A stretch of 63,891 bases of DNA, counting the filler, from Theionarchaea archaeon (GTDB lineage Archaea; Methanobacteriota_B; Thermococci; Methanofastidiosales; SZ-28-30): NCBI GenBank assembly GCA_018992565.1. It is 7 parts of 7 records of this genome, joined end to end, with 100 filler letters (N's around TTAATTAATTAA, not from the genome) between each part and the next. Parts side by side here need not be neighbours in the genome. Positions count along the whole stretch, not along the records: positions 37,006 to 53,318 come from JACVGW010000063.1; 6 more parts are not named here. One strand, written 5' to 3'. The position numbers and the translations under genes are program-made. Shown here in pieces: positions 2,703 to 49,516 of the stretch (position 1 is its first letter; each line of letters starts with the position of its first letter). Under the pieces are notes generated by a model, which was not told the DNA's origin, did not search any database, and worked only from the letters and a program-made list of their open reading frames with translations.

Positions 2703-3035
2703 CTAGAGATAGGTTTGCTGCGGGTTCCACTGGTACTTTTTCAAGTCTATACCGTCACGCTTTCCGAATACTACTCCCTCTTTTTCTAGAAGAGCTTTCT
2801 GCGTCTCATATCCTGAACCATGAGGTAGTGATATTCCGCCTTTGCTGTTTATCACTCTGTGCCAGGGTAGATTCTCCTTGCGGGAAGACGCATGCAAGAC
2901 CCATGCCACCTGACGGGCTCCCTGTGGATTTCCCGCATATTTCGCAATCTGACCGTAGGTGGCAACTTTTCCTGCGGGTATGCTCCTGATGATTTCCTTT
3001 ACAGCGTCGAAAAAAGAATCTTCGAATTCGTCCAT
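2703..3035 (-). CDS. Alkyltransferase-like (ATL/YbaZ, MGMT family) DNA-binding protein
   Basis: IPAGKVATYGQIA and PWHRV (Trp replaces the catalytic Cys of PCHRV). Confidence 0.9.
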   Translation of the reverse strand: MDEFEDSFFDAVKEIIRSIPAGKVATYGQIAKYAGNPQGARQVAWVLHASSRKENLPWHRVINSKGGISLPHGSGYETQKALLEKEGVVFGKRDGIDLKKYQWNPQQTYL

Positions 3036-3302
3036 GCTGAAGACAGAGTCTCAAGACATAAGAGCTTTTCCGTACTGCGAAGACTCGGAGCCCGGTGGAT
3101 ATTCAGAGAGAGGAGGATGGATTGATTTTTTTGCTGTAGCTATTCAGTAGAGAAGGGATAGTTTGGAAAGTTTTTGCAGAATTGCCCTGGAGCGAACTTC
3201 TGCCCATCCACAAGGACTCCAATTAACGCGTGTAAGAATCTATCGACCCGGGAATGCTGTTACAGTGGAGGCAGCAAACCATACCCATGTGCTTTCAGTA
3301 TA

Positions 3303-5107: not shown

Positions 5108-5839
5108 TCACAATCTTTCGCCACAGTGGGGGCAAAAGCTGCTCCCTGGAGGCACATTTCTACCACAGTGGCTGCACAGTGGTTCCATGAGGTCTACAGA
5201 ACCAGCAGATTCCTTGAACGGGGATTGCTCCAGGGATTTTCGCATTTTTCCTGACATAGATCTGTAGAGAACAACCATCAAAGGAACGACAAGCACATTG
5301 ATGTACCAATTCGGGGCCATCAAGATAGTATTAAAGATTCCGTGGGCAATAATGGAGAGAGCCAGTCCTATTGGTATGGTATTTTTCCCTGTGGATTTCT
5401 TCAGTCCCAGGGCATATCCCCAGAATGAGGCAAAGAGCACATGTCCAAGTGTGGAGATTGTTGCTCTCCCCAGCATCACAGAAGCCCCGTAGGAGTAAAT
5501 GTAGAATAGGTTCTCCAGTGATGCAAATCCCAAGGCTGCAGCAGCACTGTAGATGATGCCATCCATGACTTCATTGAATTGTGATTTCTTATACATATAA
5601 AGGTAGATGGCGAGAAACTTGAGGGTTTCTTCAATAACACCTACCAGTATCTCATCGACCATGCCGAATTCATGAATTACTATTTCCTCCAGGAGGGCAG
5701 CCGGGATGACCATTCCAGCTCCCAGAAAGAAGCTCTTTATTAGACAGCTGGCAGGTTCTCTCTCATACCTGTCCTTTCTCCAGAAGAACCACAGCCAGAA
5801 AGCACCTGGAGCCACTGCAAGCGCCACATATTCTATCAT
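5108..5839 (-). CDS. PrsW-family intramembrane metalloprotease with C-terminal zinc ribbon
   Basis: DRYEREP, EETLK, GFASLEN, H and HGIFN motifs; CxxC..CxxC tail. Confidence 0.9.
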   Translation of the reverse strand: MIEYVALAVAPGAFWLWFFWRKDRYEREPASCLIKSFFLGAGMVIPAALLEEIVIHEFGMVDEILVGVIEETLKFLAIYLYMYKKSQFNEVMDGIIYSAAAALGFASLENLFYIYSYGASVMLGRATISTLGHVLFASFWGYALGLKKSTGKNTIPIGLALSIIAHGIFNTILMAPNWYINVLVVPLMVVLYRSMSGKMRKSLEQSPFKESAGSVDLMEPLCSHCGRNVPPGSSFCPHCGERL

Positions 5840-37176: not shown

Positions 37177-38454
37177 TCACCGCCCAATTCTTTCCCTGAT
37201 CTCATCAATATACAACTGCAACTTTCTGTACTGGAGTGGCTCCAAGGGTTTCGGGTGGGCCAGATCATTTCTTATCTCATTCATTTCTATGAGTCGTCCC
37301 TTAATCCATCCAATGCTGATAAAATAAGGCTCAAACAAATCCCAATTATTAACCCTCTCAGTCCTATACAAAATTATGGACAAATAATTAGGAAAATCAG
37401 TATAATGTAGCAACGAATAAACTGTCTTCTTCCTGATTCTGGCATCATGTTGACGCACTTTCAACCTTTCCAGCGTGTCAGAAGGTATGCGCTCTTCCCA
37501 CCTCTCAGATCCTTTCTGCAGTACCTGTTCCAGAAACCCCCTGAATCCCTCTTCAAACTCAGACAGAACTGCGTAGGCCTGGGGGTTGCTGCGAATACTC
37601 TGCTGCACCTTCTCAGAAAACTCCTCCAGAGCAGGGGGCAGGACATATTCCCGCAAGAATCGCTTGTACGCCTTCTTATCCTCTATAACAAATCGAAGTG
37701 GATCCTTATAATACCTGATAGTACCCTTTTCCTTCATCTCTTCCAAAATTCCTTCTATGTCCTCCAAAGAAATCGAATACTCTTTCAGCTTTCGAAAAAA
37801 GATCTTTTCTGCTTTGGGTTCATATACATACAAGACCCGGAACACATTCAGTACCCTGGAGATATCCTTCAGAGCATCTTCCAGAGACAGAATCCTCTCC
37901 TCATTCACATAGTACTCCTCAAAGTACCTGTACAAGTCGGGAGGAGTGACCACAACTCCATGCCCATTCACAGGTCCCAAAGCCGTATATTGGTGAGCCT
38001 TACGGGCAACCCCGGCTTCCAACAGCAAAGACTTTATCATCACAACAAGATCCTGAATCACAGGAAGTGATGCTGCCAGTCTGAACTCCGGATGAAGAGA
38101 GGGAGCATGTTTTCCCTGCGACAGCAGGTGGCCCAAATACCTCAGGACAACATATGATCCTTCCAGGTTGAGCTTCTTACATTGCTCAAAAACCTCCTGG
38201 CTCTTCTCATGCAGGAGATCACCTGCAATCTGTTCTCCCTTCCCCGTACATCTCAGTAGCTGCACCTTCCCCCACATGCCCTTCTCCAGCAGGTCATAGC
38301 CATGCAGTATGCCTGTTGGCCCTGAAACATCTGCAGCAAGGACACCTTTCTCAGATACATTTTGCTTAACAAATACATCCAGCAGGCAGTCAAGTGCCTT
38401 ATCAGTATCGAATCCATACCTATCGAGAGTCTTCCGCAATGTCCTGATGTTCAC
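37177..38454 (-). CDS. Hypothetical protein with C-terminal Swt1-like HEPN domain
   Basis: YTDF..Y..II...NWDLF..YF and the Rx4H motif RNDLAH. Confidence 0.7.
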   Translation of the reverse strand: MNIRTLRKTLDRYGFDTDKALDCLLDVFVKQNVSEKGVLAADVSGPTGILHGYDLLEKGMWGKVQLLRCTGKGEQIAGDLLHEKSQEVFEQCKKLNLEGSYVVLRYLGHLLSQGKHAPSLHPEFRLAASLPVIQDLVVMIKSLLLEAGVARKAHQYTALGPVNGHGVVVTPPDLYRYFEEYYVNEERILSLEDALKDISRVLNVFRVLYVYEPKAEKIFFRKLKEYSISLEDIEGILEEMKEKGTIRYYKDPLRFVIEDKKAYKRFLREYVLPPALEEFSEKVQQSIRSNPQAYAVLSEFEEGFRGFLEQVLQKGSERWEERIPSDTLERLKVRQHDARIRKKTVYSLLHYTDFPNYLSIILYRTERVNNWDLFEPYFISIGWIKGRLIEMNEIRNDLAHPKPLEPLQYRKLQLYIDEIRERIGR

Positions 38455-41035: not shown

Positions 41036-41860
41036 CTAATGGTCATCCTGGCATTTCTTGTCCTGCTGGCAGCATTCCACAATATCCTCGGCCAAGATCA
41101 TCGGGTTGTCTGCTTTCAGTTCTGAAGAAAAAAATGGAAATAGAAAATGCATATATTCATCCATCTCTATGAATTGCTCCTGATCAGACGTCTCCTGAGT
41201 TAGGTGAGGTCTCTGGAACTCTTTCTCAAGGGCCAGAGCACCTATCCAGGAGGCTGCAGTATAGATGAATGCATGCTGCATGAGAAACCTGCTCTGGGTA
41301 GGAATTCTCTTTATGGTGAATACCATACGTAGATACCGCCATATGGATTGAGGATGGTCACTTTCTGTGGTGCGGTGCAGGACTTCGTGGATCAGGAGCT
41401 CAAGTGTTTTCTGATCGTGCTGGTCCAGTATGGGCATACTGAGAGGAGTACTCCGGGGCCATGAGCGAAAGAAGGGCATGACGGGGAATACTTCTAAAGA
41501 CCCTTCATGGAACAGCCATAATTCTTTCATCATGGAAAGAATTCTCTGCTGGTTTGATTTCCACAAGGATTCGAGATTCTCCTTGAACCGAAACAGCTCT
41601 AGCCTGAAAACAGGCCAATCTGCTTCAAATGATCTCTTGAAGGGGCCCACTTCTTCTCCAATAGGGACAGGAATGCGCGTCAGCACAGTATCCAGAGGTT
41701 CATCCAAGGCAAAGAGGCTTTCTACTTCTCTCGACCACAGATAGGACTTCTCTGGAGAGAGACGGCTTCTTGCATATCCCAGGAAGTTCAGTGGCTGTGA
41801 TATCTCGAAGATCAGTCTTGCAGTCATGCTATCATCATGGGAAGGAGTATGAACATTCAT
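41036..41860 (-). CDS. HExxH-motif hypothetical protein in RiPP operon
   Basis: LLIHEVLH motif; 12 nt after the methyltransferase. Confidence 0.6.
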   Translation of the reverse strand: MNVHTPSHDDSMTARLIFEISQPLNFLGYARSRLSPEKSYLWSREVESLFALDEPLDTVLTRIPVPIGEEVGPFKRSFEADWPVFRLELFRFKENLESLWKSNQQRILSMMKELWLFHEGSLEVFPVMPFFRSWPRSTPLSMPILDQHDQKTLELLIHEVLHRTTESDHPQSIWRYLRMVFTIKRIPTQSRFLMQHAFIYTAASWIGALALEKEFQRPHLTQETSDQEQFIEMDEYMHFLFPFFSSELKADNPMILAEDIVECCQQDKKCQDDH

Positions 41861-41872
41861 TCTTCAAAATGA

Positions 41873-42682
41873 CTATCGTTTCTGGGCAATGGCCTGTAAA
41901 TGGTTCCCTACAGGGCCGAACCCTTCTTCGTTTAAAGCGATCTCGTATGTCAGAATCTTTTTCCTGAATTCTGCATCTGTTTCAAGTCTTTCTCCCAAAT
42001 CCTCAAGATAGGCCGATCCGAAGGTTATGAATACTGGCTTTCCAACTACCTTCACAAGATCAGCCCCTGCCTCATCAAATTCCTCTTTAAAGACACGGGG
42101 TGTAAACGTAAAGGTGCGCGTACCTCTCTTGTCCACTGCAATTCCCTTTTCCAGGATACTCTCTCCTTCAGTAAACCCATGTAGGACAGATTGCCTCATA
42201 AAAAACATGTACCTACTGTCCACGCCAATTTCAATGTAGGACTTCGGTTTGGCAACCCTCACCAATTCTTTTATGGCCTGGAAATGATTCTCTGCACAGT
42301 AAGAGACTGGATCGCCCTCTGATAGCACAAAGTCGAAGTAATCTGAGGAGAAGTCCAGAGCTGTTATATCCCCTTCCTGGACGAAGATTCTGTCTTTTAG
42401 CCCTTCTCCCTCTATTTTTTCAGAAGCTTCTGCCAGCATTTCAGGAGAGACATCCACGAGGTGAACAGTATACCCCCGTCTTGCCAGCTGCATGCTCCAT
42501 TTGCCTGTGCCTCCTCCTGCATCCAAGATAACACCCTCCCCGGGGAGATAATCCTCAATGTACTTCCAGGTAAGCGCGTCATACACTGCCCACATTCCTC
42601 CTGAAAACATCGCATCATAGGACTCCGCCAGTCGACTGTACGTATCTCTTGCATCCTCTCCTTTCATTCCATCACTCCACAA
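41873..42682 (-). CDS. Class I SAM-dependent methyltransferase
   Basis: ILDAGGGTG, VDVS..ML, GD...FDFV, RVAKP. Confidence 0.9.
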   Translation of the reverse strand: MWSDGMKGEDARDTYSRLAESYDAMFSGGMWAVYDALTWKYIEDYLPGEGVILDAGGGTGKWSMQLARRGYTVHLVDVSPEMLAEASEKIEGEGLKDRIFVQEGDITALDFSSDYFDFVLSEGDPVSYCAENHFQAIKELVRVAKPKSYIEIGVDSRYMFFMRQSVLHGFTEGESILEKGIAVDKRGTRTFTFTPRVFKEEFDEAGADLVKVVGKPVFITFGSAYLEDLGERLETDAEFRKKILTYEIALNEEGFGPVGNHLQAIAQKR

Positions 42683-42926
42683 GCTCCAATTCTCTAAATC
42701 TGGACAGCGTTTTCATAACATCCTCCTCCACGGTACCACGATCACTTTCCTGATCCATCAACAAATCCAGAAGCTCTTCCTCTCCCATCCCCTGCTGACA
42801 GGCTTCCATGATGGTGAGAGCTGTCTCATTAAACCGGTATATTTTACCCGTTCCCATGTGAATAACATAGGTTTCTTCAGGTTCTTGTCTAACCAATACC
42901 TGCGGATTAACCCTGGGCAGGCTCAT
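42672..42926 (-). CDS. PqqD-family RiPP recognition element (stand-alone)
   Basis: Three-strand/three-helix RRE pattern: IY.FNETA..I......DV..TL..F...ELVE. Confidence 0.85.
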   Translation of the reverse strand: MSLPRVNPQVLVRQEPEETYVIHMGTGKIYRFNETALTIMEACQQGMGEEELLDLLMDQESDRGTVEEDVMKTLSRFRELELVE

Positions 42927-44217
42927 GGGCATTCCTCCTTTCATGCATATATTCCAAGTAAGGGGCCACAATTTGCTTTACATCAAAGCAGGCGGGGGTG
43001 TAAAGATCCTTATTGACCAGTAGTGACTGATATCCACAGCCTCCCCCACACAACAATGCCATGTCGCATTCCCTGCACATATCTAAAGCAAAGATGGTCC
43101 GATTCCTCCATTTCTCAACTGCTTCCTCAAAAGATAGTTCAGGTATATACACCCCAATACGATGTTCTTTCCAGCCCAGCATGGCCCGACATGGGTACAC
43201 CTCTCCAAAGGGATCGAAGACGTATCGGTTGACCACGGCGGCACAATTCCAGAATGAGGGCCAGAATCGAGGGTGCTCCGTATATAGAGAACCCAGCTTT
43301 GCATATGGTGAAGCCTCGAAGAAGCGGAAATCTTCATGAGCTGCCAGATCCAGAACCTGCCTGTACACTGCAAGGAGCCTCTCATAATCCTCAAGGTTCA
43401 TGATCTGACCACATACGTGGATCATGGCAAAATGGATATGGGGATCATCAACCCATCCCCTCTCTCTGTAAAAGTGGGCGAGCTCTCCAATCCGTGAGAG
43501 AACATCTGGGTCGGAATTTGTCCGAATAAGCAGGGTGAGCCCTATTTCCCGTGCTTTCTCTATATTTCTGACAATGGCATTGAAGGTCCCCTTCCCACTC
43601 CTCGATATTCGTCTCTGATCATGAATGGGTTGGGGGCCATCCAGAGTAATCTGCACAAATTCAGTATTCACAGATGAGATTTCAGAAAGAAAAGAATGCA
43701 GCTCCACACCATTGGTGAAAAGCGTGAATTTATATCCCAGATCATCACCTTTCCTCAAAATATACTGCACAATATCGGCATTCTTCCTCATGAGAGGTTC
43801 CCCCCCTGTTAGAGTCACAAGTTTTTCTCCTGGGCACTGCGCATTGAGCTCTTCCATGGCAGCATATGCTTTATCCACCTTGTATTCATCCATCACCATA
43901 TTCATCATCTGGGGGTTCTTTACCCATATTTCATAGCAGTAAGGGCATCTCAAGTTACAGTCATATGTCACGGCAATAGTACTGTCTGCACACTGTGAGG
44001 CTTTCTTCCTCAGAAAAGCGCAGAAGGCCTGAGCTTTCTCAGCCTCTTCTTCAGGACTCAAATGGGTGAAAAAAGGGTTCAGCTCCTCAGAACCCTCGCC
44101 TTCAAGAAATTTCTCCCCTGTCTGCTTATCTACAAGAGAAACTGCACCTGATAATCCATTAAGTAATAGGTACTTGTCTTTCACTGCAAATACCATGGTA
44201 TACTGGCTCTTTCTGAT
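42907..44217 (-). CDS. Radical SAM/SPASM peptide maturase 1
   Basis: CNLRCPYC, GGEP, ITLDG...HD..R, SPASM C..GEVYPC..CxxC..CGGGC..C; start is either ATC at 44217 or ATG at 44196. Confidence 0.92.
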   Translation of the reverse strand: MRKSQYTMVFAVKDKYLLLNGLSGAVSLVDKQTGEKFLEGEGSEELNPFFTHLSPEEEAEKAQAFCAFLRKKASQCADSTIAVTYDCNLRCPYCYEIWVKNPQMMNMVMDEYKVDKAYAAMEELNAQCPGEKLVTLTGGEPLMRKNADIVQYILRKGDDLGYKFTLFTNGVELHSFLSEISSVNTEFVQITLDGPQPIHDQRRISRSGKGTFNAIVRNIEKAREIGLTLLIRTNSDPDVLSRIGELAHFYRERGWVDDPHIHFAMIHVCGQIMNLEDYERLLAVYRQVLDLAAHEDFRFFEASPYAKLGSLYTEHPRFWPSFWNCAAVVNRYVFDPFGEVYPCRAMLGWKEHRIGVYIPELSFEEAVEKWRNRTIFALDMCRECDMALLCGGGCGYQSLLVNKDLYTPACFDVKQIVAPYLEYMHERRNAHEPAQG

Positions 44218-44394
44218 GGACCCACCTCCTTTCTGTTCTGGTAATCCGGCTTATAAAGGTTTTCTTGCCCTTACCCTCTCTCTGATCATCCTTGGTTTCT
44301 GTGGATATATCTCCATTGTTCACTAGTGAAAATTTAACGGCATCCCCAAGAAAAATAAAAAAATAGAAAAGTTGTTGCATTATTGTTCCAATGC

Positions 44395-44472
44395 TTAGTC
44401 TACAATGACTGCGCAGCACATGCACTGGTCAATCTCCATAGAAATCTCTTCAATTTCAGATCGTATATACAT
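44395..44472 (-). CDS. RiPP precursor peptide A1: MYIRSEIEEISMEIDQCMCCAVIVD
   Basis: Manually translated; own BRE-TATA, AGGTGAT SD, T-rich terminator; paralog of A2. Confidence 0.85.
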   Translation of the reverse strand: MYIRSEIEEISMEIDQCMCCAVIVD

Positions 44473-44768
44473 GGATATCACCTGGTCTTCTTTACACCTT
44501 CTCTCTTATAAATCTTTCGGAAAAGCATAATTGATTCAACACAAATAAAAAATACTGCTAATGTAATAAAGGCAGATCCGCTCAAAACTAAAGCCAGGAA
44601 GACGGCACGATACCTGCGGCTTTTAATGCACGATCTTGTCTTGTCGAAATGCCTTGCGCTCAGTCTTCAACCATTCAGTTGCCTGCAGTTCTCCATATGA
44701 TTCAAAAAATGATGAGAAGAATAAGAAAAAGAAGGAAAAAAAGAGGACTTCCAAAGTAAGAGAATTGC

Positions 44769-44867
44769 TTATGCAACAACTCCAATGTTGTCTATGGGAG
44801 CTGCAGCACAGCACATGCACTGGTCAATCTCCATAGAAATCTCTTCAATTTCGGATTTTATGTACAT
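44769..44867 (-). CDS. RiPP precursor peptide A2: MYIKSEIEEISMEIDQCMCCAAAPIDNIGVVA
   Basis: Manually translated; same promoter and SD as A1; synonymous differences from A1 (TAT/TAC, TCT/TCC, TGC/TGT). Confidence 0.85.
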   Translation of the reverse strand: MYIKSEIEEISMEIDQCMCCAAAPIDNIGVVA

Positions 44868-45071
44868 GGATATCACCTGGTCTTCTTTATCGTAGGGACT
44901 TATAAATCTTTCGTTCAGGTTTAATAGAATCTAAGAACTCAGTAATAAATGGTAATACAACACATAATTTATCACTTGAGATTATATGATGTTGAGGAGT
45001 AAACACAATCTCCATTTCAAACGCATCTGATCTTCTTGTAGGATGAAAACTTCTGAAAGAGCTGTCGAAAA

Positions 45072-46313
45072 TCACTCCCCAATCTTCTTGCCTTCTGCTA
45101 TCAGGAGCAATGCCGGAAGCATGGCTGCAAGAAGACACACAGATGTGATTTGGAATGTCATCCTGATACTGAACAGCTCTGCAACGTAGCCATACATCAA
45201 GGGGGCAACAATGCTGGCCACGCCTCTCACTGACCCCAGTGTCCCGAAGTACGTACCTCGAAGGTCTGCAGGAACGATATCCACAATTAATGCGCTCATG
45301 ACCGGGCGAAACATCCCATCACCAACCCCAATCAATGCCCACAAAACTACCATCCAGGCCAGGTTGGGAGAATATGCCATGCCGGTATTGAAGACGATAA
45401 TGAGCGTCAATCCAAGACCAATGAACGCTTTCCTCTTTCCCAGTCTATCAGAAATCCATCCTCCAAAGGGCTGGACCACGGCAAACGTGATCCATGAAAC
45501 TGCAACAATGGGTCCCAGGAGTTCATCGCCTGCTCCAAATACCTTCGCTGCAAATAAGGGAACATAAACGGGGTATACTCTCAGCGCAAACGTGAAGAAA
45601 AACGAATAGATCATCAGTCCGAGAGTACTTCTCTGCACTGCCATGGCACGGACGCCCTTTGTGAACCGTTCAAGTCTGCCTTCAGGGGGACCACGTGAAG
45701 GAGTCTCCTCTTTTCGTTCAACAGTTTCCTTGAGAAAGACTGCAAGTACCAGAGAAGAACCAAAGAAGCATGCAGAAGTGATATAGAATAGTTCTCTAAA
45801 CCCGAATCCCCAGGCTAAGATTGCTCCACCTGCAAAGAGAGCCGCAGAATATACAATGCTCTCCACCGAAGAATAAAAGCCGAATAGAGTTGCTCGTCCC
45901 TTTTCAGGAGCGACATCTCCCACCATAGCGCTGAGAACCGGTTGGGAGCTTTCAGAAACGACGGTACGCGCAGAATGGATAACTGCCAGTCCCAAGGCAC
46001 TACGGATGACAAGATAAAAGGGGGTCAAGAGACTCACGAGGAACGAGAGACTCACAATGAGCTTTTTTCTTCCGTATTGATCTGATACATTCCCTATGAG
46101 AGGCCGCATCACCAGCGAACCCAAGCTTGCCATTGAAAAAATAATCCCTAAATTCTTGAAACTGATTCCCTGTTCTACAAAATAAACTGCAAATATGGGA
46201 TTCAAGAATCCTGCACCCACCATTGAAACTCCACTTGCCAGAAGAAGTGCTGGGATATTCGTTGATTGTGAAAGTAATTTCCAGACTTTCTTGATTTCTT
46301 GGAATGCTGACAT
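45072..46313 (-). CDS. MFS transporter (candidate exporter)
   Basis: GNVSDQYGRK and GWISDRLGKRK motifs; about 12 TM. Confidence 0.9.
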   Translation of the reverse strand: MSAFQEIKKVWKLLSQSTNIPALLLASGVSMVGAGFLNPIFAVYFVEQGISFKNLGIIFSMASLGSLVMRPLIGNVSDQYGRKKLIVSLSFLVSLLTPFYLVIRSALGLAVIHSARTVVSESSQPVLSAMVGDVAPEKGRATLFGFYSSVESIVYSAALFAGGAILAWGFGFRELFYITSACFFGSSLVLAVFLKETVERKEETPSRGPPEGRLERFTKGVRAMAVQRSTLGLMIYSFFFTFALRVYPVYVPLFAAKVFGAGDELLGPIVAVSWITFAVVQPFGGWISDRLGKRKAFIGLGLTLIIVFNTGMAYSPNLAWMVVLWALIGVGDGMFRPVMSALIVDIVPADLRGTYFGTLGSVRGVASIVAPLMYGYVAELFSIRMTFQITSVCLLAAMLPALLLIAEGKKIGE

Positions 46314-46591: not shown

Positions 46592-47623
46592 TCAGCATAA
46601 CGTTGAAAGAGGATCTGGATCGCTGATCCCGCCCGATGCTGCATATGCATCTGCCCTGCACCCCCCTGTACATAAGGAAAGGTACTCACAGTCGAGACAT
46701 TTTTGAGGGACGTGGGAAAATGTCCTGCACTTCCAGATGAATTCCGATCTACTCCAAATAGATCTCAATGATTCTTCTTTCAGATCTCCTTCTTCACTTC
46801 CCATGGCCCCGCATGTGCGCACTAGTCCTTCTGGGGAGACTGCACACCAGGTTATCCCTCCCTGGCAACCCACCACATCAAATTTCTGGTAGATTTCAAG
46901 CATAGAAGGAATACCCTCCTCTCCGAGGCAGCACACAGGGAAAGGAGACTGAATGGATGCACCTTTCACGTCACAGTGAAGCAAGAACCGCATCAACTCG
47001 GATATGGTCCTGCTGGTAAACTGCAAGGCTTTACGAGCATGTTTTCCCGTGAGCACCAGGCGGGTCATGCTGAGATTGGCTCCCAATGACTTGGCAACGT
47101 CTTCAACGTGGGGCAGCTCTCTAAAATTAAGGCGGGTTAGAGCCAGGTTAATATTAGTGGGAACTCTATGGTCTGCCAGGTGATTGAGTCCGCATGCAGC
47201 TTTCTGGTAGGCTCCCTGGACGCCCACAAGAGAATCATGTGTTTTCTCAGTCCCATGGAGCGAAACCTGCACTGATGTGTGCAAATTCTTTAACATCTGT
47301 GCCTTCTCTTCTGTTAGCAGGGTCCCATTGGTAACCACGCATGTTTTCATGCTGTGATTTCTTGCATGTTCTATGAGTTCGAAAATATCTCTTCGCATGA
47401 GGGGCTCCCCCCCGGTGAAAAAAAGCATTTTGACGTCAGCCTCCTGGAGTTGATCCAGAATTGCGGTCATGTTGGTGTGGCTATGCCCTTTTTCCCACAC
47501 GTTGTAGCAGAACTGGCACATATTGTTGCATCGGGAAGTCACTTCCAGTTCTACTGTTATGGGGGAGGAAAGTGCCCTTCCCAGCTGCTGTGATCCCTTT
47601 CTGAATTCTTCAGGGGACTTCAT
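46592..47623 (-). CDS. Radical SAM/SPASM protein 2 (PqqE-like)
   Basis: CNNMCQFC, TGGEP, HD.L.G..GA, SPASM C..C..CxxC..CTGGC. Confidence 0.92.
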   Translation of the reverse strand: MKSPEEFRKGSQQLGRALSSPITVELEVTSRCNNMCQFCYNVWEKGHSHTNMTAILDQLQEADVKMLFFTGGEPLMRRDIFELIEHARNHSMKTCVVTNGTLLTEEKAQMLKNLHTSVQVSLHGTEKTHDSLVGVQGAYQKAACGLNHLADHRVPTNINLALTRLNFRELPHVEDVAKSLGANLSMTRLVLTGKHARKALQFTSRTISELMRFLLHCDVKGASIQSPFPVCCLGEEGIPSMLEIYQKFDVVGCQGGITWCAVSPEGLVRTCGAMGSEEGDLKEESLRSIWSRSEFIWKCRTFSHVPQKCLDCEYLSLCTGGCRADAYAASGGISDPDPLSTLC

Positions 47624-48452
47624 GCATGACCTCCTGGTAGTGAAGTGCGTCAGCACGTGCTCTGTTCACATCTGTATATCGATGCTTGAGCAGTACACGA
47701 TTATCCCGAATAAGGTATAGAGACAAGTACCCGGCGAGAGGGTTCTCCATAATAAAAGGTGTAGAGCCAACCTGGGAAATGTCTATGGAGGGTTTTCGGG
47801 ATTTTGAGCTGGCATCAGCAGGCACGAGCACAAATGCATCACCTGCACCAGGAAGATAATCAAGAATCTGACGTAAATCAGGCTGTGCCTGCGCCTGAAT
47901 GAGGTTCTGAATCTCTAAACTGCATTTCTGATACGTGTAAGGGAGTGCAATCTCTAGAGCAGAAAACATGCTCCTGATGTGACGCAGGTGAACTGCTTCA
48001 CTCTTATAGGTATCAAGGCTGAAAGGAATGAGAAAGACAGGAGCCTGAACAACCCCATGAGAAAAACCTTCCAGAGCATCAATCTTGGCCTGTACAGCTT
48101 CAGGCTTTCCGTGGGAAATCCACCCATCTGGAGAAAACATGCACCCCGTTGAGAAGAAGTTCTTGGGGAGTTGTTCCCCCGTTGCTGCGCTGGTTAAAAG
48201 CAAGAATAGGGGCACAGAGGTACTCCATCCATCTACAGCCCAACTGTCCACTGAAACGAGAAAATCATGGTTTTGGTATTGGAGAATCTTTTCCATGAAT
48301 TGAGTGATAGTGCGCAGTTGGAACTGCCATTCTGGATAGTAAACTGTGGACGAATCCAGAAATATCTTCCCATTACCTTTCTTTTTCTGCACACTGAGTG
48401 TTCGGGCGACTGCTCCCCCATGAGATAAAACAAGAATAGCTGTGGAGATCAT
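47610..48452 (-). CDS. Stand-alone Lon-type (S16) protease domain protein
   Basis: DGWS aligns with Lon DGPS; TG at Lon spacing; downstream Lys in AKIDA; no AAA domain. Confidence 0.6.
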   Translation of the reverse strand: MISTAILVLSHGGAVARTLSVQKKKGNGKIFLDSSTVYYPEWQFQLRTITQFMEKILQYQNHDFLVSVDSWAVDGWSTSVPLFLLLTSAATGEQLPKNFFSTGCMFSPDGWISHGKPEAVQAKIDALEGFSHGVVQAPVFLIPFSLDTYKSEAVHLRHIRSMFSALEIALPYTYQKCSLEIQNLIQAQAQPDLRQILDYLPGAGDAFVLVPADASSKSRKPSIDISQVGSTPFIMENPLAGYLSLYLIRDNRVLLKHRYTDVNRARADALHYQEVMHEVP

Positions 48453-49516
48453 CTTGAGTCCTCCGGGTTGTACCAGCATTGAGGATCAGGAGTATTGTAA
48501 TCATTGGAAAACGCATAGGCGATACAGGCTGCGCCCCCATTGCACAACCCGTTATACTGCAGATACTTGCAGGACTGACATTTTCCCTTTAAGAGAGGTT
48601 GACGTCTTCTGAAATCCCACAAGACATCATTCTTGAACCAAATGTCCAGAAAGGACTGCTCAAGAAGAGAACCGAGTGGGATGGGCAACCTCCTGCAGGG
48701 GACAGCAGTGCCATCTGCCAGAACGGTAAAGGTGGATGAAGCTACAGCACATGCATTCCCCAGCCGCTCTTCTCTGTTCTTATATCGTCTCACAGCTTCT
48801 TCTGGATCAGTTAAATGAAAGAGACACCTATTTTCCACGATGTGAGGGGTTCCTATCCTGGATAATTCTTGATTCCTCTGGTGCAGATAGGCAAGAACCT
48901 CTCCAGTCTCTTCAGGAGTCAAGACAGCGTCCATGGCTTTTCCTTTTCCTATAGGGACCAATCGGGTTAGATATAATGTATCCACGCCCAGTTTCTCTCC
49001 CAGAGCGATGATGGAAGGAATATCACTCTTATTCTGAGCATGAAAGGTATAACTTATGGTGGTCTTGAGAGGTGTACCGGCTATGACGGAAATCAGTCCT
49101 GATACTGCCTTTTCAAATGCTCCTTCTCCTCGTATGGGGTCATTAACTGAAGGTATACTCCCATCAAGACTCACCTGTATGGTGGTTATGGGTGGGGTAA
49201 ATTCATTAAGCCTTTCGATTACGTGTGGGGTGATGAGCGTTCCATTGGTCTCCAGGAGAACCTGGGTAACGCCTTTTGAGTGTAAGTAGTGGACAAGATC
49301 AAAGAGATCTTGGCGAAGAAATGGTTCTCCCCCACTTAAAGCAAAACATGGTGTTACCTTAAGAACGGTTAATCCTTCCATCAGAGTATCTGCAATCCTT
49401 ATGAGCTGTTCAAAGGGAAGATCCTGCATCTTTTCATCCCTGTAACAGTGAGTGCAGTGCAGGTTGCAGCGATCAGTGATGTGCCACTGCAGAGTAAATC
49501 CTCGGGTCGGCTGCAT
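48449..49516 (-). CDS. Radical SAM/SPASM protein 3
   Basis: LQWHITDRCNLHCTHCY, SGGEP, QVSLDG, SPASM C..PC..CxxC..CNGG..C..DPQC. Confidence 0.92.
   Translation of the reverse strand: MQPTRGFTLQWHITDRCNLHCTHCYRDEKMQDLPFEQLIRIADTLMEGLTVLKVTPCFALSGGEPFLRQDLFDLVHYLHSKGVTQVLLETNGTLITPHVIERLNEFTPPITTIQVSLDGSIPSVNDPIRGEGAFEKAVSGLISVIAGTPLKTTISYTFHAQNKSDIPSIIALGEKLGVDTLYLTRLVPIGKGKAMDAVLTPEETGEVLAYLHQRNQELSRIGTPHIVENRCLFHLTDPEEAVRRYKNREERLGNACAVASSTFTVLADGTAVPCRRLPIPLGSLLEQSFLDIWFKNDVLWDFRRRQPLLKGKCQSCKYLQYNGLCNGGAACIAYAFSNDYNTPDPQCWYNPEDSR

Follow-up and report, generated by a model that had tools for sequence, protein, structure and literature searches.

Peptides modified by radical S-adenosylmethionine (SAM) enzymes are well explored in bacteria and hardly in archaea, and among the described systems it is CteB/SCIFF (thermocellin) of Clostridium thermocellum (PDB 5wgg, 5why) that holds the best solved relative, both by sequence and by full-length fold, of the enzyme described here. 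This enzyme, a maturase of 429 residues, is encoded by an uncultured Theionarchaea archaeon (GenBank assembly GCA_018992565.1) within a window of 63,891 nucleotides, by which we mean the whole stretch of DNA that was analysed, and upstream of its gene lie two very small minus-strand genes, A and B, which we consider quite likely to be paralogous precursors of peptides that are made by ribosomes and modified after translation (RiPPs), processed by the enzyme. CteB/SCIFF and the present system have in common a seven-cysteine SPASM radical SAM enzyme with an N-terminal domain reminiscent of a RiPP recognition element (RRE) and a short cysteine-containing peptide encoded next door. However, the match of our maturase to the SCIFF maturase family (TIGR03974) amounts to 89.6 bits against a cut-off of 425, SCIFF peptides have about 45 residues and six cysteines whereas the present precursors have 24-35 residues and two to three cysteines at the junction of leader and tail, and the present system is archaeal and furthermore includes a discrete PqqD protein, a methyltransferase and an HExxH protein.

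An archaeal precedent for chemistry of the thioether kind is CrpC (TIGR04463) of Methanococcus voltae, for which installation of ranthionine links on a cysteine-rich protein has been shown (PMC13692751). CrpC is likewise an archaeal radical SAM/SPASM enzyme with three iron-sulfur clusters and an RRE, its two substrates are described there as having a common N-terminal leader-like part and then diverging, and its family is the second-best NCBIfam match of our maturase (117 bits against a cut-off of 525). The substrate CrpA is however a 28.8-kDa protein with ten 17-residue cysteine repeats and C-x-x-Q/D motifs (PMC13692751), whereas the substrates of the present system are very small peptides that hold just one CMC(C) unit, with no cysteine followed by Q or D at +3. 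The sole biochemical case from archaea found in the literature consulted concerns a large protein substrate (PMC13692751). The best NCBIfam match is the CefB 'Cys-every-fifth' family (NF038107; 141 bits against 600, 4.8e-41, residues 5-412), likewise a maturase of cysteine-bearing peptides, but the peptides of the window have no cysteine at every fifth residue. The PapB/freyrasin ranthipeptide system (NF047865) also comprises a thioether-forming radical SAM/SPASM maturase, which is matched with 107.3 bits (cut-off 340), and Asp, the acceptor residue of PapB, is present in 14 of 20 tails of the present family, although the spacing from Cys to Asp is x4 or x5 here and not the x3 of the PapB motif C-x3-D. 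Together with the geopeptide maturase (110.7 bits against 400) and Clo7bot (103.5 against 600), these families make up the six best NCBIfam matches, all of them maturases of cysteine-bearing peptides and all under cut-off. Finally, the PqqA/PqqD/PqqE and MftA/MftB/MftC systems resemble the present one in combining a very short precursor and a discrete PqqD-family protein with a radical SAM/SPASM enzyme, but the residues modified in these, namely Glu and Tyr in PQQ and a C-terminal Val-Tyr in mycofactocin, are absent here, where the tails are hypervariable and the genes multicopy, and CteB is by far a nearer relative of the enzyme than PqqE is. The PQQ and mycofactocin maturase families are likewise absent from the best 25 of its 76 NCBIfam matches.

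The two putative precursor genes are the following.

44769..44867, minus strand: precursor gene B, ATG at 44867 and stop at 44769, 32 residues (MYIKSEIEEISMEIDQCMCCAAAPIDNIGVVA), consisting of a 16-residue leader, CMC and a 13-residue tail (CAAAPIDNIGVVA)
44395..44472, minus strand: precursor gene A, ATG at 44472 and stop at 44395, 25 residues (MYIRSEIEEISMEIDQCMCCAVIVD), consisting of a 16-residue leader, CMC and a 6-residue tail (CAVIVD)

The original prediction had described these genes as twins invisible to the track of open reading frames (ORFs), and indeed both are shorter than the default limit of 60 residues. When listed, their starts are placed three codons further up, at an in-frame GTG within the ribosome site, which yields 28 and 35 residues, respectively; the sequence CCAGGTGATATCC, which includes this GTG, is found immediately 5' of both ATGs. 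The peptides begin with the common part MYI(R/K)SEIEEISMEIDQCMCCA, and the claim that a common leader is followed by diverging tails is in agreement with the DNA, since between CGAAAG and TGCTG hardly any letter differs from one copy to the other, while downstream of CMCCA they are unrelated. Within the 21 common codons there are four synonymous differences (codons 2, 5, 20 and 21) and a single non-synonymous one (R/K). The coding constraint that had been read from this pattern is confirmed among relatives, since pN/pS over the first 20 codons is 0.07-0.30 in all 15 pairs formed by six orthologous genes, and since all eight complete genes verified at the DNA level retain the frame, the ATG and the stop, despite unequal tail lengths. 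The sequence comparisons hence show genes A and B to be protein-coding and under purifying selection.

The contigs of three DNA sequencing runs (X5, X15 and X18) end inside the common leader sequence, at window positions 44411-44461; run X5 furthermore contains a 44-nt piece at about twofold depth, and short pieces that are 90-95% alike continue into unlike sequence. In one DNA run the word depth exceeds 200. Such breaks are as expected for a repeated leader with further members of the family in the same samples.

A short-peptide profile search had been proposed as a check, and a profile of six peptides run against 1,835,955,588 representative proteins did yield 12 matches at E <= 0.001. With the two genes of the window and six genes found in the DNA of relatives, the family thereby counts at least 20 members, and all family-wide numbers given here refer to these 20. 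M1, Y2, E13, C17, M18 and C19 are invariant, Q16 is found in 19 members, position 15 is D or E, and the 16-residue acidic leader has the consensus MYxKxEIxEIxxE[IV][DE]Q. Past the CMC the tails are 5-16 residues long, with 19 distinct sequences, and are hypervariable and uncharged or acidic, with A (29), I (29), G (22), P (21) and V (18) prevailing and a lone Lys being the only basic residue in all of them. The notion of a conserved acidic leader ahead of a variable core is thus well supported, while the emphasis placed on CMCC holds in part, the invariant unit being Q-C-M-C and the third cysteine, with which the tail begins, being present in 13 of the 20 members. Among the 12 database peptides, five are of the CMCC type and seven have this cysteine replaced (CMCL and CMCG twice each, CMCS, CMCD and CMCN once each). 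Neither Pfam nor NCBIfam contains a model matching the peptides (NCBIfam: 0 families at E <= 0.01). In the GTDB order of a related Theionarchaea metagenome-assembled genome (MAG), G001, the profile matched 3 of 33 genomes, one of these matches (genome G051, E 0.0019) being spurious as it lacks the CMC motif, and one contig of the second genome with the system (G002:C13) carries two complete tandem copies and a third that is cut by the contig end.

Each gene is accompanied by signals of its own.

44899..44913, minus strand: element of gene B, CGAAAGATTTATAAG, resembling a transcription factor B recognition element (BRE) plus TATA box, ending 31 nt before the ATG
44505..44519, minus strand: identical 15-mer CGAAAGATTTATAAG, BRE/TATA-like element of gene A, ending 31 nt before the ATG
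44872..44878, minus strand: Shine-Dalgarno-like AGGTGAT of gene B, its GGTGA being kept at equal distance in orthologues
44477..44483, minus strand: Shine-Dalgarno-like AGGTGAT of gene A, its GGTGA being kept at equal distance in orthologues
44704..44742, minus strand: T-runs T7, T5 and T6 past gene B, 27-65 nt after the stop, a candidate archaeal oligo-T terminator
44351..44363, minus strand: T-runs T7 and T5 past gene A, 32-44 nt after the stop, a candidate terminator

Archaeal promoters consist of a BRE plus a TATA box, oligo-T is a termination signal of archaea, and Shine-Dalgarno-type sequences pair with archaeal 16S rRNA at its 3' end; judged from its letters, CGAAAGATTTATAAG reads as just such a BRE and TATA box. 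It occurs exactly twice in the window, both times on the minus strand, against 0.07 expected, and none of 100 shuffles gave at least two matches. The pattern CGAAA[AG][AG]TTTA[TA]AA[AG] is found at equal distance upstream in six of six orthologous genes from four genomes or contigs, as are GGTGA at the same spacing ahead of the ATG and T-rich tracts past the stop. A rough ad hoc filter for small ORFs (TATA-like plus Shine-Dalgarno-like plus ATG, 12-70 residues) moreover let through genes A and B only in the whole window. That each gene has its own promoter, Shine-Dalgarno sequence and T-rich terminator, as originally predicted, therefore stands as far as their presence goes, in the six orthologous genes including those of the window, but the signals are of the archaeal type (BRE/TATA and oligo-T) and not the bacterial. 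A further TATA-like element, CCTTTATAAG, is found at window positions 44250-44259 on the minus strand, some 54 nt ahead of the maturase start codon, and the maturase operon may, by this sequence, have a promoter of its own apart from those of both precursor genes.

The genes that follow the precursors are the maturase and two probable partners.

42907..44196, minus strand: radical SAM/SPASM peptide maturase, 429 residues, with an RRE-like N-terminal beta-beta-beta-alpha-alpha domain; Pfam Radical_SAM and Fer4_12
42672..42944, minus strand: discrete PqqD-family RiPP recognition protein, 90 residues; Pfam PqqD 5.5e-9, 36.7 bits against a cut-off of 23.4; its start overlaps the maturase end
41873..42682, minus strand: class I SAM-dependent methyltransferase, 269 residues, candidate tailoring enzyme; Pfam Methyltransf_25 4.7e-20, no NCBIfam cut-off reached

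In 29 maturase orthologues the CxxxCxxC motif (C80-x3-C84-x2-C87) and seven C-terminal cysteines (318, 336, 374, 377, 383, 387 and 403) are invariant. CteB is the best solved relative in a sequence search of the PDB (3e-17, compared with 1.5e-4 for PqqE), and it also ranks first when the AlphaFold2 (AF2) model of the maturase is compared to the PDB with Foldseek (E 1.6e-15, TMq 0.62, 450 columns, full length), followed by TigE, ChlB, anSME and SuiB. The model has a mean pLDDT, the predicted value of the local distance difference test, of 75.7, and its residues 1-65 form three strands and two helices, a layout that would correspond to an RRE-like winged helix. About 30 database clusters are at least 53% identical to the maturase, all six that carry a source name being from Theionarchaea or Methanofastidiosia, and the next identity is at most 38%.

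The PqqD gene, to which the original prediction had only alluded, is thus present next to the maturase, and the suggested structure prediction of PqqD plus leader gave a weak pass. When the PqqD protein (5-row alignment) was co-folded with peptide B (18-row alignment), the outcome was 'weak support', with a score of 0.50 against 0.05 for the best of three controls, at least 96% contact agreement between runs and a partner pLDDT of at least 53. In calibration 58 of 80 solved complexes attained this mark, as did 2 of 110 mismatched pairs, but scores of 0.60 or below were given to only 7 of those 80 complexes and to both passing mismatches. Since solved RRE-leader complexes exist, the pass may furthermore reflect likeness rather than binding.

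Two more genes flank this block.

41036..41860, minus strand: lineage-specific HExxH protein, 274 residues, candidate zincin-like leader peptidase; no Pfam or NCBIfam match
45072..46313, minus strand: major facilitator superfamily (MFS) transporter, 413 residues, candidate exporter; Pfam MFS_1 6.4e-47

The 274-residue protein has 21 database homologues, all named ones being from Theionarchaea or Methanofastidiosia, and H158-E159-x-x-H162, H196 and E258 are invariant in all 22 sequences. A VIA-align comparison of its AF2 model (pLDDT 89.3) with 48,161 chains is topped by the catalytic domains of M1 aminopeptidases (Z 8.9-8.1, rmsd 3.5-4.0 over 164-172 residues), with thermolysin (Z 6.4), LasB and collagenase further down at Z 5-6.4, and the conserved residues together with the model suggest that the protein is probably a zincin-like peptidase. 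In G002:C8 an MFS orthologue (63% identity) is found directly upstream of an HExxH homologue, and since the two are adjacent there and bracket the block in the window, the pair travels together.

The gene order was compared in three further loci, from the MAG G001 (locus L001), a metagenome contig (L003) and a contig of the second genome of the same order (G002:C79, locus L083), in which the maturase is 78%, 56% and 55% identical to the window enzyme, respectively. The precursors are MYTKAEIKEISMEIDQCMCCAAAPIDNIGVVA and MYTNAKIEEISVEIDQCMCCAFIAD in the first locus, MYVKSEIKEISVEVDHCMCCMYIP in the second and MYAKSEIEEIHVEIDQCMCCATMAPIIDINNPLSL in the third; that of L003 has the shortest tail (CMYIP). 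Homologues beside radical SAM genes had been expected, and for six of the six precursor genes with readable full context, taken over the window and these three loci, the position is indeed directly upstream of the radical SAM/SPASM orthologue. PqqD and then the methyltransferase are found downstream of the maturase in the window, in G001 and in G002:C79, where precursor, maturase, PqqD and methyltransferase are kept up to the contig end. Orthologues of the maturase occur in 2 of the 33 genomes of the order; a scan of genome contigs for such loci found two, one of them cut at its 5' end, and in a metagenome scan with a generic pattern from the maturase alignment L003 is the only close orthologue among the 80 matches listed, the others being radical SAM genes of 21-36% identity. 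Equal lengths of the longest contigs would place precursors P0142 and P0145 on the same contigs as maturases P0016 and P0005, and HExxH proteins P0125, P0131 and P0140 on those of maturases P0002, P0026 and P0015, which is suggestive only.

In L003 the maturase is followed (5253-5765, plus strand) by a gene for a 170-residue protein that by eye resembles flavin proteins of the pyridoxamine-phosphate-oxidase type. Upstream of the block in the window, two AhbD/NirJ-like radical SAM/SPASM genes (46592-49516, minus strand; 354 and 355 residues, best NCBIfam match heme b synthase with 159-160 bits against a cut-off of 500) were considered as members of the cluster and rejected, being collinear in the close relative G001 only and not beside the precursors in G002:C79, G002:C13 or L003. 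They overlap a gene for a 289-residue protein without Pfam or NCBIfam match and are preceded by genes for a 162-residue membrane protein and a 771-residue penicillin-amidase-family protein, and this stretch, which runs to 52344, may be a separate, uncharacterised system. At the other end of the region (37177-38454, minus strand) a 425-residue protein with a sub-threshold Swt1-like HEPN match (20.2 bits against a cut-off of 27.5) is encoded, and is 80% identical in G001.

Taken as a pathway, the system could operate as follows. Each precursor gene would be transcribed from its own BRE/TATA promoter, with termination at the oligo-T runs, and the leader of the peptide would be bound by the discrete PqqD protein, by the RRE-like N-terminal domain of the maturase, or by both. 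The maturase would then abstract a hydrogen from a nearby residue and form a bond to the sulfur of Cys17 or Cys19, and of Cys20 where present, giving one to three small thioether rings; we give such thioether chemistry roughly an even chance. A side-chain-independent S-C-alpha (sactionine-type) link would be the best fit to the hypervariable tails, and is attractive because the donor cysteines are invariant while the acceptor-side residues vary, but an S-C-beta/gamma (ranthionine-type) link to a tail Asp or to the conserved Glu13, Asp15 or Gln16 would be equally allowed. The methyltransferase would add a methyl group, the HExxH protein would remove the leader and the MFS protein would export the product. 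Most likely, cross-linking of the peptides by the maturase would yield a small natural product that is exported and whose family is undescribed. The two unlike tails behind one leader, along with up to three or more copies in tandem in a relative, suggest that the peptide is secreted and diversifying, and serves in antagonism or signalling.

It should also be mentioned that several observations weigh against this interpretation. The maturase reaches no curated NCBIfam cut-off, its best match being 141 bits against 600, and the Pfam SPASM model does not match it. No acceptor motif of the related systems is found in the tails of the 20 members, be it the C-x-x-Q/D of CrpA (PMC13692751) or the C-x3-D of PapB. 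Strict conservation in the peptides is confined to leader and QCMC, as would also be expected if the conserved segment were itself the functional part of the product. For the HExxH model, Foldseek gave no match in the PDB at E <= 0.001, and the VIA-align result is middling, Z 8.9 comparing to a typical best Z of 7-8 for unmatched models. L003 has precursor and maturase only, without adjoining PqqD or methyltransferase, and both proteins are therefore to be seen as accessory and the PqqD-leader step as not general. Lastly, the RNA library X20 contains nothing on the precursors and just one 186-nt contig (43034-43219, depth 2.9) inside the maturase gene, where coverage means assembled contigs, the library may contain DNA and uncovered stretches prove nothing.

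The same genes and enzyme could also engage in other radical chemistry on the Val/Ile/Ala/Pro-rich tails, such as formation of cyclopropylglycine (TigE/TvgB), epimerisation (YydG/EpeE) or a C-C or C-O cross-link, with cysteine only docking the peptide on an auxiliary cluster. In agreement with this, TigE (8vpo) at Foldseek rank 4 (E 9.9e-11) has the highest TMq of all, 0.66, A, I, G, P and V prevail in the tails, and the maturase reaches no family cut-off that would fix its chemistry. However, all 20 members have C17 and C19 but share no conserved position in the tail, the six best NCBIfam matches are all maturases of cysteine-rich peptides, and CteB is first by sequence and fold whereas EpeE appears only from Foldseek rank 43 on (E 2e-5), and we regard this alternative as quite improbable. 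Epimerisation of the Val/Ile/Ala tails, which the original prediction had offered as one option, is likewise made less likely by the fact that the nearest relatives of the enzyme are thioether synthases. Alternatively the conserved segment itself may be what matters, E-x-[DE]-Q-C-M-C giving rise to a cofactor or metal binder along the lines of PqqA/PqqD/PqqE or mycofactocin, or to a thiolate or thioether metal ligand, with the tail as a dispensable follower. This notion stems from the joint occurrence of a very short peptide, PqqD and a radical SAM/SPASM enzyme, from the strong purifying selection on leader and QCMC, and from the invariant Met18 between two invariant cysteines, Cys-Met-Cys being similar to soft-metal ligand sets. 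It is nevertheless very improbable, since a pattern of two to at least three tandem copies per locus with unlike tails, 19 of 20 being distinct, is that of diversifying secreted peptides, since the family is present in only 2 of the 33 genomes of the order, since the system is accompanied by an exporter and a protein resembling peptidases, and since PqqE is a weak match in the PDB (1.5e-4 against 3e-17 for CteB).

The two explanations that do without a modified peptide fare worse still. Genes A and B could be regulatory small ORFs, that is, Cys/Met-rich leader peptides tuning the downstream SAM-using genes to the supply of sulfur amino acids, as their position upstream of the operon and the clustered Cys-Met-Cys-Cys codons might suggest, such clusters being typical of classical bacterial attenuator peptides. 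However, A and B are each equipped with a promoter-like element and oligo-T runs of their own, a separate TATA-like element precedes the maturase, conservation extends beyond the Cys codons to the entire 16-residue leader, the tails of the tandem copies are hypervariable, and the folding of both mRNAs is unremarkable in comparison to shuffles (z -0.20 and -1.75), all of which makes this function highly improbable. That the repeat takes in non-coding upstream sequence would fit a duplicated non-coding element, a promoter repeat or small RNA, in which the open frames occur by chance, but such an origin is in poor agreement with the low pN/pS in all 15 pairs and with the frame, ATG and stop kept in all eight complete genes, and an Rfam scan of 44200-45100 found no match in either gene and a single chance-level snoRNA match outside them (E 0.42), so that together with the unremarkable fold z-scores this explanation can be considered extremely improbable.

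Returning to the reading of A and B as precursors of a cross-linked RiPP, the precursor family and its HExxH partner are undescribed, while the kind, a radical SAM/SPASM cysteine-peptide RiPP, is already known; in the literature consulted, which was available mostly as listings and abstracts, no paper was found on this peptide family or on RiPPs of Theionarchaea or Methanofastidiosa. The locus is a minimal and well-delimited system, with substrates of 25 and 32 residues and one each of maturase, PqqD, methyltransferase, candidate peptidase and exporter, and could be reconstituted in E. coli to give access to the chemistry of this archaeal enzyme clade. It also illustrates that genes under the usual ORF length limits are recoverable from the grammar of promoter, Shine-Dalgarno sequence and terminator in combination with comparative constraint.

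Such enzymes number in the dozens in this lineage. With the maturase as query, 36 matches were obtained in G001 and 41 in G002 (E <= 0.001), against only 4-13 first-look candidates in the remaining 31 genomes of the order, and paralogous maturase pairs in L088 and L089 are preceded by other cysteine-rich small ORFs (2989-3147 and 2729-3070, respectively, both minus strand), for example a 52-residue ORF ending in GVCGCGGCCCAFYCRTLIC. Radical-SAM peptide systems hence seem to have expanded greatly in the lineage, and the 36 and 41 matches in the two relatives suggest that modified peptides are a major investment of these uncultured archaea from sediment. Pieces of near-identical DNA are moreover found in two metagenomes, one of mangrove and one of sediment, both belonging to studies other than the possible source (runs X15 and X18; 3444 nt and 2791 nt, with one differing letter each), and the organism or a very close strain thus appears to be widespread in such sediments. 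It is also conceivable, though unlikely, that the system represents a new archaeal RiPP class of a type not yet described, in which the invariant Gln-Cys-Met-Cys is made into a compact, methylated cross-linked head, possibly bicyclic or metal-binding, and the hypervariable tail sets the target specificity. If true, its products would rank with the first archaeal natural products that are radical-SAM peptides, and would imply peptide-based antagonism or signalling in anoxic sediments.

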